The translations under genes were made by a program, and so were the position numbers. A stretch of 64,000 nucleotides of DNA. Origin: a virus. Below, piece after piece: positions 26,783 through 29,681 of the stretch (position 1 is its first letter; every line of letters starts with the position of its first letter). The stretch lies in the IMG/VR virus record IMGVR_UViG_3300014202_000802, one strand, 5' to 3'. A model generated the notes under the pieces. That model was not told the origin of the DNA. It worked only from the letters and a program-made list of their open reading frames with translations, and ran no database searches.

Positions 26783-28189
26783 ATGTTCAAAAATATTATA
26801 TCATTCATAATTTCGTTCACACCCTTTTTCACACAGGTAATTTACGGTATGGCAGAGTTCAACGCCGCAAAGATAGCTGATATGTACGGCACAAAGGTAA
26901 AAGAGGAAGAAGAAACCGACGAAGAGAAACAGCTGCGTGAACAGGAAGAGGCTGCCAAAATTGAGCTTGAAAAGAAAAAGAACGAAAAAAAACCGGGTGA
27001 TGACACCAAGAAGGAAGATGAAAAAAAGGACGACGACAAATCCGATGAAACATCTTTCACAATAGGTGATAAAGATTATGATATTGCCGGGCTTGAAGCA
27101 GAAGTTGGCAAGCTGGAAGACGATTCAGAAACCATCGAGATCAACGGCGAGGAATTAACCAAAGCCGAAGCTCTTGAACTGATAACTGAAAGCAAAAAAG
27201 CCGCGGGTATCGATGAAACAAAAGGGCATACCATTGGCAAGAAACTGTTATCGGACGCGGAATACACAGATTTTGTAAGTAAAGCGGCAAAGCATTACGA
27301 ATGGGATGAGGACGATATTAAGAACATGCCCGCAAAAACCCTTCAGAAGCTGCTTGTTCAGTTCGATCAGCATTTGGATGCTGAAAAAAGTATCAAAGAC
27401 CGGCACCAGCAGAATGCCAAAGAGAAGCGCGAAATAGACAAACAGCGCATTGAACTTTCACAGGGGATGCAGGAACGCATTGATATGCGGACAAATCTCG
27501 AAAAAGATATCAAGGAACTTGAAGATAACATCAAAGCCAAGAAGGATTTGATCGCCAAGGATCCTGATGACGAAGCTAACGAAACGGCTAAGAATAAATT
27601 AATAAGCCGTCAAACCACTGCCGAGGAAACCCTGAAGGCTGATGAAAAGGAATTACAGCGTTTAAAAGGCAGGGATGCAAACATCGAAGCACAGCAATCC
27701 GCAATATGGGTAAGGGCGATGATCCTTGACCTGCAGACCGATCCTGTATTCAGCACAGGTGACGAAAACGTTGAGGATATACTTGCGGAAAATGACCAGG
27801 CGTTAGCCCAGGGCAAACAATACACCGGCGATAAGCATACTTTGCGTGTTGCAAAGCAGGTACGCCGGATACTAAACGATTATGAGGCTTTCCTGGATGC
27901 GAATCCGAAAGCTAAAACAGGCATTATGGCTTTTTACAACTCCAACAAGGAGGATTATCCTGACTTATCCGCAAAACGGACAAAGGCTGCGCAGACAGAT
28001 AGTAAGCAGGGTAAAACGGACAGTCTGAAGGAATCATTCCTGAAGGCATTCAAGAAACAGAAAGAAAATCCGCTTTACAAAAAAGGCGGAGGCGGTGCAG
28101 GCGGGTCAACCTTAACGGAAGACCAGGAACACGACAGGGAAGCCGAAGAGCTGAAGAAGCGTGTTTACAGCGGCGCAGCGCCAAAATAG
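26783..28189 (+). CDS. Capsid scaffolding protein with 22-aa hydrophobic N-terminal leader
   Basis: Highly charged, coiled-coil, ends 'KKGGGGAGGS'; lies between portal and capsid. Confidence 0.7.
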   Translation: MFKNIISFIISFTPFFTQVIYGMAEFNAAKIADMYGTKVKEEEETDEEKQLREQEEAAKIELEKKKNEKKPGDDTKKEDEKKDDDKSDETSFTIGDKDYDIAGLEAEVGKLEDDSETIEINGEELTKAEALELITESKKAAGIDETKGHTIGKKLLSDAEYTDFVSKAAKHYEWDEDDIKNMPAKTLQKLLVQFDQHLDAEKSIKDRHQQNAKEKREIDKQRIELSQGMQERIDMRTNLEKDIKELEDNIKAKKDLIAKDPDDEANETAKNKLISRQTTAEETLKADEKELQRLKGRDANIEAQQSAIWVRAMILDLQTDPVFSTGDENVEDILAENDQALAQGKQYTGDKHTLRVAKQVRRILNDYEAFLDANPKAKTGIMAFYNSNKEDYPDLSAKRTKAAQTDSKQGKTDSLKESFLKAFKKQKENPLYKKGGGGAGGSTLTEDQEHDREAEELKKRVYSGAAPK

Positions 28190-28319
28190 TTTTAAAGATA
28201 GTTTCAACCACAAGTTCAGATTAACCTTGTATTATACTTCGCAGTAAGTCCAGTTAAGCAAGGCGAAAATCAACACTGTGTATTAATTAATAAAAAATTA
28301 AAACAAAGGAGATTTCGTC

Positions 28320-29681
28320 ATGTTTAAAATCTATAGACTCCTCATGTTCGTATTCACGATCATAGGAGTATTCAGTACAAGGGTTGCGTGGGGGCTGGTT
28401 TCATACAGTCATTACGTATCCACAGGAGCATCAGAGCAGACGGTTGAGGTAGATTACTCGAAAGAGGTTTACAAAGACCGCCAGATATATTCACCGACAG
28501 TTTACCTTATCGATAAATTCACAAAAGTACATAAACCGACATCGGAGATCGCAAAAGGTTTCGATAAGACGATGATCAAGGATATGCTTGAGCTTGGTGC
28601 GGCATTTACCACACAGACCGCGGGCGAGATAGGCACAGCCGAAACGATCACACTTGCAGCCAATGCGAAGGATAACCTTGAGCTTTACCAGGAAATTGAG
28701 CTGGTTGGTTTGACCTCTGACGAAGATACATATACAAGATACGTTTATGTATCCGATAAGAATGATTCAGACACCACGACCATTAAGATCATGGCAAGGA
28801 ATCCCGCGCACAGGATCGGTTCCGGAGACAGTGAAGAGGTTGCAGCCGGTACACTCCTTTCATGCATGGGTTCAGCGTTTGCCCGTGAGCAGGGAAGAGT
28901 AAAGGGCGTTTCGCAGTTCGCAACAACCATTGATAACTACTACCAGGATTTCAGAAGGTATTTCAATATCAATGATGTAGCCGCTATGAACAAACTTTAC
29001 CATGAAGGCACACCTGAAAACATTCTTGAAGGCGATACGAGGCAGGCGTTTTTAATGCTGAAGGAGAAAACATTCCTTGAAGCAGGCCCGAAATACCAGA
29101 AGAAAGTTGCTGCAGGAACCGATACATCAGAGATCGGGAAATTAGGCGGATTGATCTACGGCGTAAAGACCGGCGGATCACCTGCTGTAAAAAGCTACGA
29201 TACATTTGAGTATAAGAAATTCGATCAGTGGCAGTGGGCGCTTGGCGATCCGGATATCAATGATGTTGCGGGAATAAGACAGGTTCTTTGTAACGCGGCT
29301 TTCCATAAGCTGTTTTACGACAAGAAGCTGGCGTTCCCGGGCTTTGATTATTCACAGATGCCTGCTGATACATACGGAATACCGAAAGTTATGAAGGTGA
29401 GAACCGACAGGCTTGAGATGCATTTAATTGAGCATCCTGTATTTACCCGTTTGTATCCGAATATGAACCAGCCGTTCGCGCTGGCGCTGACATTCCCATA
29501 CATTGAGTACAGGCCGCTGATAAAGACATATTTGTGGACAAACGTTCAGGAGAAGGGTGTACCTGTGATCCAGAACTGTTTCAGGAGCGTGGATACATAC
29601 ATTATTCATCAGCCTGCAACACCGTTCCATGGTATTCTTTATCCGACCACAAGAATGGCAGCAGACGAAGAGCTTGCATAA
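28320..29681 (+). CDS. Major capsid protein with 25-aa hydrophobic N-terminal leader
   Basis: 453 aa after scaffold; strong AAGGAG RBS; downstream hairpin; 'IDNYYQDFRRYF', 'KLGGLI' resemble podovirus HK97-fold coat proteins. Confidence 0.8.
   Translation: MFKIYRLLMFVFTIIGVFSTRVAWGLVSYSHYVSTGASEQTVEVDYSKEVYKDRQIYSPTVYLIDKFTKVHKPTSEIAKGFDKTMIKDMLELGAAFTTQTAGEIGTAETITLAANAKDNLELYQEIELVGLTSDEDTYTRYVYVSDKNDSDTTTIKIMARNPAHRIGSGDSEEVAAGTLLSCMGSAFAREQGRVKGVSQFATTIDNYYQDFRRYFNINDVAAMNKLYHEGTPENILEGDTRQAFLMLKEKTFLEAGPKYQKKVAAGTDTSEIGKLGGLIYGVKTGGSPAVKSYDTFEYKKFDQWQWALGDPDINDVAGIRQVLCNAAFHKLFYDKKLAFPGFDYSQMPADTYGIPKVMKVRTDRLEMHLIEHPVFTRLYPNMNQPFALALTFPYIEYRPLIKTYLWTNVQEKGVPVIQNCFRSVDTYIIHQPATPFHGILYPTTRMAADEELA

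Follow-up and report, generated by a model that had tools for sequence, protein, structure and literature searches.

The question raised by the 64,000-nucleotide stretch of viral DNA catalogued as IMG/VR record IMGVR_UViG_3300014202_000802 (hereafter the window, by which we mean the whole stretch) is why two proteins that build a phage head should each begin like a secreted protein. Textbooks place the capsid and scaffolding proteins of tailed phages in the cytoplasm. In the window, both the major capsid protein and the scaffolding protein carry a short hydrophobic leader that ends in an aromatic residue followed by Gly. Comparison of homologous proteins shows that these leaders are translated N-terminal extensions conserved across a phage family, and in composition and C-terminal region (c-region) they resemble the Sec signal peptides of the host lineage. 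The reading that we favor, with a probability of roughly 0.4, is that they would be removable leaders that mimic a host signal and take both shell subunits to the membrane.

Both leaders in the window begin with basic residues, continue with about 12 uncharged hydrophobic residues and end in Val-x-Tyr/Trp-Gly (Table 1), and the N-termini quoted for the two proteins in a first-pass annotation of this DNA read exactly as claimed. After removal of the leaders, the capsid protein is predicted to start at Leu26 and the scaffold at Met23, the latter (26849) lying directly after the leader motif. The scaffold ATG at 26783 is the first AUG downstream of a TATATTTG box, with none in between; this box fits the Bacteroidota-type -7 box TAnnTTTG, and an identical TATATTTG is found 5' of the scaffold gene in the related locus L002. 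The capsid ATG at 28320 has AAGGAG 8 bases 5' of it, and the only other in-frame start before about codon 85 is Met9. When all starts in the window were scanned, a hydrophobic leader together with an aromatic-Gly end was found on three real genes only: those encoding the scaffold, the capsid and a 684-amino-acid (aa) propeller-like protein. (A leader had also been proposed for the protein encoded at 42048, by analogy with OpdA and P22 gp7. The segment in question contains two Pro residues, ends NIG/P and failed the scan, and the L001 gene at the corresponding position, a match made by position only, starts otherwise; we found no support for the analogy.)

That the 28320 gene encodes the major capsid protein, as first proposed, was borne out by structure prediction, by a profile match and by gene position. 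An AlphaFold model of the protein made from 36 homologues (mean predicted local distance difference test score, pLDDT, of 83) had as its best Foldseek match the capsid of Vibrio phage VP1 (E 1e-23), with further PDB matches to the capsids of phicrAss001, Pa223, SU10, T5 and others. Consistent with this, the capsid family profile found the VP1 capsid protein in the PDB by sequence alone (E 1.7e-27), and Atlas neighbours of the protein bear SU10_MCP or Crass_capsid. By model and by profile, then, the 453-aa protein is an HK97-fold major capsid protein. The model shows a helix at residues 2-19, with disorder from residue 20 to residue 47. Residue 28 of the VP1 capsid pairs with residue ~51 of the window capsid in the profile alignment, and the solved VP1 protein is shorter at its N-terminus by ~23 residues, a difference that matches the leader in length; the mature lattice can thus do without the leader. 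The scaffold shares 21-28% identity and conserved blocks with proteins encoded upstream of the capsid in L002, L003 and L004, and matched no family in Pfam or PHROG.

An exhaustive HMMER search identified 42 relatives of the capsid protein, 36 of them full length (17-40% identity), and ten loci bearing such capsid genes were compared. In 34 of the 36 full-length homologues an N-terminal extension ends in [FYW][GAS] shortly before the start of the conserved N-arm, and in 26 of the 36 a strict test found both a basic start and a hydrophobic run. A hydrophobic leader is present on the scaffold in seven of nine informative genomes, namely the window and L002, L003, L004, L043, L045 and L067, and in the last six it ends in ISYG, VFG, LFG, AVFG, TVFG and EEWA, respectively. 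Moreover, the scaffold and capsid leaders have similar ends within one genome (TQVIYG/TRVAWG in the window, GKAVFG/GKGVFG in L043 and TVFG/AVFG in L045). Because they are conserved, the leaders are far beyond chance, and their conservation across homologues shows that they are translated. Thus, the alignment of homologous N-termini upheld the earlier proposal of paired leaders on scaffold and capsid, whereas the exact string on which it was based, T-x-V-x-[YW]-G, is specific to this genome; the core that is conserved across homologues is aliphatic-[FYW]-[GA].

Further elements were seen close to the leaders. Scaffolds contain a second aromatic-Gly element (ADMYG, RTWG, DLWG or DSFG; 26849-26900 in the window) 14-30 residues past the leader, in which the Gly is invariant, and many capsid homologues have S-Y-G or S-Y-S a few residues past the leader.

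The integrase of the prophage in the window recurs on contig L005, where it adjoins a tRNA-Asn gene and an LptF/G permease gene. Because this LptF/G gene shares 74-80% identity with its counterparts in Ignavibacteria metagenome-assembled genomes, we assign the host to the Ignavibacteria, as a lipopolysaccharide-bearing bacterium. A 531-aa protein encoded beside the integrase pointed to no organism when used as a query. The leaders were compared with 52 signal peptides from 400 kb of one related Ignavibacteria genome, in which cleavage sites were taken as marked by Gln at +1 (the Bacteroidetes 'Q-rule'). Phe or Tyr occupies -2 in 33 of these 52 signal peptidase I sites (VFS/Q, IFA/Q, VYG/Q, LYG/Q; the slash marks the cleavage site), and -3 is aliphatic or small. 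In the tally of 34 capsid leaders, where -2 is Phe, Tyr or Trp by construction, -3 is V (12), A (6), I (4), S (3), L (2) or T (2) with five exceptions, V, A or I accounting for 22 of 34, and -1 is A (18), G (11) or S (5) in every case. The first 10 residues contain a mean of 1.9 Lys or Arg in the phage leaders and 1.8 in the host signal peptides (n=52), the median uncharged run is 15 residues against 16, and the capsid leaders are longer (median 30 residues against 21). Leaders of the family open with basic residues, run on through about 15 uncharged hydrophobic residues and, in many cases past a Pro or Gly break, end in aliphatic-aromatic-Gly/Ala. Judged by composition and c-region, the leaders are look-alikes of host-type Sec signal peptides.

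The aromatic -2 of the host sites shows that T-x-V-x-[YW]-G is not a private code of the phage; this style is the usual c-region of the Sec signal peptides of the host lineage. The same finding accounts for the leader of the 684-aa protein: a leader is indeed present there, but it is an ordinary host-type signal peptide. (Note that an initial motif test on host N-termini was set aside as too permissive; 35% of host leaders matched it, since hydrophobic cores themselves contain FA and FG.)

Gln at +1 was found in none of the 34 capsid leaders and none of the 8 scaffold leaders (0/42), whereas 8 of 13 other signal peptides of the same loci have it (Fisher p = 1e-6), among them those of a 191-aa protein, of the 684-aa protein and of three L043 proteins. 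In Ignavibacterium album, Gln occupies +1 in 77% of predicted sites (PMC5837995), and a further report describes this Gln as being cyclised in the periplasm, where it stabilises exported proteins (PMC10653852). The lack of Gln from the leaders fits mature capsid and scaffold proteins that would not reside in the periplasm. The 191-aa protein, which is encoded in the head module and has an ordinary signal peptide, has orthologues in 8 loci, 7 of which were aligned. It has Gln at +1 in four of nine cases (L001, L003, L045 and L066), with the L066 and L067 counterparts read by position and N-terminal likeness; its AlphaFold model is poor (pLDDT 62) and had no clear PDB match. (The idea of a portable leader, based on an 822-aa leader-bearing protein of L043 and a leaderless 437-aa protein of the window, was abandoned when BLAST gave no homology between the two.)

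Under the reading that we favor, the leaders would be removable pro-peptides that exploit host signal-sequence recognition, either through the signal recognition particle (SRP) and Sec or by binding lipid directly. Capsid and scaffold would in this way be gathered at the inner face of the cytoplasmic membrane, procapsids would nucleate there, and cleavage at the aromatic-Gly/Ala site would remove the leaders either ahead of DNA packaging or in the course of it. By sequence, host signal peptidase I is the best fit for the cutting enzyme, and a phage JAB/MPN-like protein is a candidate cytoplasmic alternative. The first-pass annotation had described a host-processed and possibly membrane-tethering maturation signal; the conserved and paired leaders speak for it, but the precedent on which it drew, the host protease Prp, does not apply (see below). 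Only tentatively do we extend the proposal to a whole clade of short-tailed phages of Ignavibacteria and Bacteroidota-type hosts, which would build procapsids on the cytoplasmic membrane and have the shell freed by a host or JAB-type peptidase. It is with the same reserve that we suggest that membrane-recruited head assembly through Sec-like leaders on capsid and scaffold would be a route undescribed for tailed phages.

Several observations weigh against the proposal. The main difficulty is that signal peptidase I, the best fit at the level of sequence, acts on the periplasmic side of the membrane; for cleavage, the mature chain would therefore have to cross with its first residues at the least, and such a crossing is hard to reconcile with DNA packaging in the cytoplasm. 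The scaffold of L041 has an amphipathic leader only and that of L044 has no leader, so the scaffold leader is dispensable in some relatives. By the best 10-residue Kyte-Doolittle mean, the leaders are also somewhat less hydrophobic (capsid 2.6, scaffold 2.2) than the signal peptides of the host (3.1), and -1 is Ala or Gly in 29 of 34 capsid leaders compared with Ser in 32 of 52 host sites. As for the JAB-like protein, its scores lie under the Pfam cut-off, Asp replaces the second zinc-binding His, and another role is possible.

One alternative, which we think improbable yet worth serious attention, is that the membrane plays no part and that the leaders serve as hydrophobic docking helices, which bundle with each other inside the procapsid like a very short delta-domain and are kept or removed later. 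The likeness to signal peptides would then be merely compositional, a view that we likewise hold to be on the unlikely side. In line with docking, the model gives the capsid leader a helix that runs into a flexible linker, the L041 scaffold helix is amphipathic and not signal-like, and the end of the capsid leader and that of the scaffold leader vary together genome by genome. However, docking leaves unexplained both the basic start and the host style of the site (helix breaker, aliphatic -3, aromatic -2 and small -1, in 34 of 36 capsids).

A second alternative differs from the proposal of membrane-recruited leaders in the enzyme only and otherwise overlaps with it: the JAB/MPN-like protein of the phage would act as a cytoplasmic peptidase that cuts after Gly/Ala. 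As the first-pass annotation had stated, no classical prohead protease is evident among the proteins of the window or its relatives; a search for peptidase families (Pfam and PHROGs; ~80 proteins of the window and 71 from relatives) found only the S24 domain of the repressor and weak matches to Prok-JAB. The JAB-like protein of the window is 40% identical to its counterpart in L002 (L002:1127-1594; tblastn E 9e-25), and the gene occurs in each of the five loci with enough upstream sequence (the window, L002, L004:2185-2706, L044:1287-2084 and L067:1155-1631), where it lies upstream of the packaging genes and, in the window, 5' of a GroES-like gene and in the orientation of the packaging and head genes. 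The family keeps the motif Glu ... His-x-His/Asp ... Ser-x-x-Asp, and JAB enzymes, which cleave behind the Gly that ends ubiquitin-like tails, offer an analogy. Nevertheless, all Prok-JAB scores (11.5-24.1 bits, E 3e-5 to 0.29) are below the curated cut-off of 25, and the second zinc-binding His is Asp in two members, the window and L067 (L002, L004 and L044 have His). In addition, phage JAB proteins may act in counter-defence or tail assembly, and a literature search found no published JAB protease of capsid maturation. We consider the JAB-like protein the only candidate for a phage-encoded peptidase, a lead and not a finding, and give cleavage by it a somewhat smaller chance than docking.

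Much less probable is genuine export: the leaders would be true Sec signal peptides, and much of both the scaffold and the capsid protein would leave the cytoplasm and be cleaved by signal peptidase I. The leaders do have the three regions typical of a signal peptide and a site styled as in the host, but packaging by terminase and portal requires cytoplasmic ATP and DNA, and the phage encodes a GroES-like protein, which indicates folding in the cytoplasm. Moreover, the leaders never have Gln at +1, in contrast to exported proteins that these phages encode.

We are still more doubtful that the leaders are by-products of selection on mRNA, in which an A/U-rich, unstructured start would aid translation of very abundant late proteins in hosts that barely use Shine-Dalgarno sites, and in which A/U-rich codons would only by coincidence specify Phe, Ile, Leu, Lys and Asn. 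Leader G+C is below that of the gene body (0.34 versus 0.42 for the capsid, 0.32 versus 0.43 for the scaffold), and a site resembling Shine-Dalgarno precedes only 10 of 36 window genes. Third-position G+C, however, is not clearly lower (0.39 versus 0.40 for the capsid, 0.38 versus 0.42 for the scaffold), which argues that the difference stems from the choice of amino acids, and the conserved end motif goes unexplained.

Processing of the type known from Staphylococcus phage 80alpha, whose capsid and scaffold lose N-terminal leaders to the host protease Prp (PMC5744158, PMC9405229), has very little chance of applying here. The step from aromatic to small residue resembles the L27 site F'A, at which Prp would cut between the aromatic residue and Gly/Ala (PMC9405229), yet this is all that the window leaders have in common with the sequence MLxx(D/N)LQ(F/L)F'A(S/H)KK. 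Prp (PF04327) was absent from all five Ignavibacteria genomes searched, with the control genomes of Bacillus, Thermotoga and Lactococcus responding, and the host group is not among the Prp-bearing phyla listed in PMC9405229. L27 starts MAHKKG in all five genomes, with no N-terminal extension, and no Prp domain was found in the proteins of the window or its relatives. Prp was thus largely excluded for this host, and with it the precedent invoked by the first-pass annotation. Among the relatives, only L004 has an L27-like site: its scaffold (L004:8256-9770) contains FFASKKG, which equals the L27 Prp site, and its capsid (L004:10001-11341) starts MLKLMFQLF, comparable to MLKLNLQFF of L27.

Least credible is an annotation artefact with true starts downstream, such as the scaffold ATG at 26849: although Met23 stands directly past the motif, other scaffolds have Glu, Asp, Asn or Thr there and never Met, which disposes of this objection, and the capsid has no usable downstream start, with leaders in frame with conserved features across 17-40% identity.

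Membranes and signal peptides have been met before in phage assembly. In T4, prohead initiation is bound to the membrane via the portal gp20 together with gp40, and release follows cleavage by gp21; the route proposed here is similar in that head assembly would begin on the inner membrane and proteolysis would accompany release. The membrane-associated part in T4 is the portal and not the capsid or scaffold, and the cutting is done by a phage protease. In M13, the coat protein is made as procoat, whose genuine signal peptide is cut by host signal peptidase I; M13 is filamentous, is put together in the membrane and has another membrane-spanning segment, unlike the tailed phage with an HK97-fold shell considered here.

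The closest system is 80alpha, in which, as here, capsid and scaffold both bear a short leader, no phage prohead protease is present, and the leader end copies a host processing site with an aromatic beside a small residue. Its leaders are of 13-14 residues and of the L27 type MLKLNLQFF, whereas those described here have 20-45 residues, are hydrophobic and resemble signal peptides. They also belong to a host lineage without Prp or a long L27, and the site that they copy is that of signal peptidase I. Paired processing leaders on capsid and scaffold are accordingly known already, and it is the signal-peptide-like type that is new. With the Bacteroidota-type Sec signal peptides, as described in PMC5837995 and PMC10653852, the leaders share the basic start, hydrophobic core and style of c-region, and they differ in that +1 is never Gln, -1 is Gly/Ala and not mostly Ser, and the cargo works in the cytoplasm.

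In prophages of Porphyromonas gingivalis ('Nixviridae'), predicted signal peptides on major capsid proteins were mentioned in a passing remark, with cleavage by phage prohead proteases assumed and the leaders left unanalysed (Matrishin et al. 2023, PMC10367356). There, too, the host is of the Bacteroidota type; in contrast, the phages studied here have a leader on the scaffold as well, family-wide conservation and no Gln at +1, and no prohead protease was found. A search of the literature on signal peptides of tailed-phage capsid or scaffold proteins returned only this remark and no analysis of, or experiment on, such leaders. The remark raises the possibility that a membrane route may be common in this host group.

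A host-tuned leader that is kept in 34 of 36 distant capsids without the mark of export points to an unrecognised step of head assembly or maturation, in phages whose host group is large and poorly studied. Programs that predict signal peptides will call such capsid proteins secreted, which puts phage 'secretomes' and the annotation of virion proteins in metagenomes at risk. The predicted N-termini given above and one gene for a candidate peptidase are concrete objects for a test.

Table 1. Leaders, genes and other elements located in the window (a slash marks a cleavage site).
Feature	Position	Strand	Remarks
Scaffold leader	26783-26848	+	22 codons; basic start, uncharged hydrophobic run, end Val-Ile-Tyr-Gly (TQVIYG)
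Capsid leader	28320-28394	+	25 codons; MFKIYR, 12-residue hydrophobic run, end Arg-Val-Ala-Trp-Gly (TRVAWG)
Late-promoter-like element	26715-26756	+	GGGATACAC at 26715-26723, then TATATTTG at 26749-26756
Scaffolding protein	26783-28189	+	468 aa, acidic, charge-rich; between portal and capsid genes
Major capsid protein	28320-29681	+	453 aa; HK97 fold, SU10/crAss-like superfamily
JAB/MPN-like protein	18821-19279	+	152 aa; Glu22 ... His94-Ser-Asp96 ... Ser-x-x-Asp107
191-aa beta-sandwich protein	30570-31145	+	conserved; head module, two genes past capsid; ordinary signal peptide
684-aa propeller-like protein	55872-57926	+	host-type signal peptide, SYG/Q, like host VYG/Q and LYG/Q
GroES-like co-chaperonin (Cpn10)	20527-20970	+	Pfam Cpn10 E 3e-17; just 5' of small terminase
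Small and large terminase	21283-23528	+	late region
Large terminase	21927-23528	+	terminase-like PHROG matches
Portal protein	24249-26435	+	by position; P22_portal matches of orthologues in L002, L041 and L044
Integrase	62832-63833	-	right end of prophage

The window represents a prophage, with a cI-like repressor bearing an S24 domain at its left end and the integrase at its right end; a long plus-strand late region spans the interval between them. The order terminase-portal-scaffold-capsid is common to the window, L002, L004, L041 and L067, and in L044 an additional 183-aa gene separates scaffold from capsid. In the window, a gene for a 92-aa zinc-ribbon protein sits between the portal and scaffold genes, and the capsid gene is followed by head-completion and tail genes and then by the gene for a 3522-aa protein. 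Other searches were silent: capsid and portal queries gave no tblastn match among 50,697 phage records, scans of viral and genome contigs with the capsid found no relatives, and neither the scaffold nor the JAB-like protein retrieved anything but itself in a word-index protein search.

A Cpn10-type gene is present in L067 too (L067:2525-2788), and the GroES-like gene of the window is reminiscent of gp31 of T4, which is required for folding of the T4 capsid protein. A 70-aa protein (16619-16831, plus strand) has a C-terminal SEC-C zinc motif of the kind found at the C-terminus of SecA (Pfam E 2e-9), a curious presence beside signal-like leaders on the capsid and scaffold of the same phage. On the opposite strand, a lipoprotein gene (37309-37734 in the window; 127-141 aa across the window and its relatives) sits just upstream of a structural gene of ~1000 aa, a position kept in all three relatives checked (L002:16942-17334, L003:7088-7474 and L004:16866-17249). 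The lipoprotein may be an exclusion protein expressed by the lysogen.

The 3522-aa protein (44261-54829, plus strand) has weak SNF2/helicase matches at residues ~1366-1774 and one zincin-like motif, HEFGH, at residue 1997, with no peptidase family detected in it. Finally, the lysis region (58324-62215, plus strand) contains an unusually large number of small membrane proteins in a row (five or six, including DUF3307), a run that ends with a GH19 endolysin carrying a peptidoglycan-binding domain.

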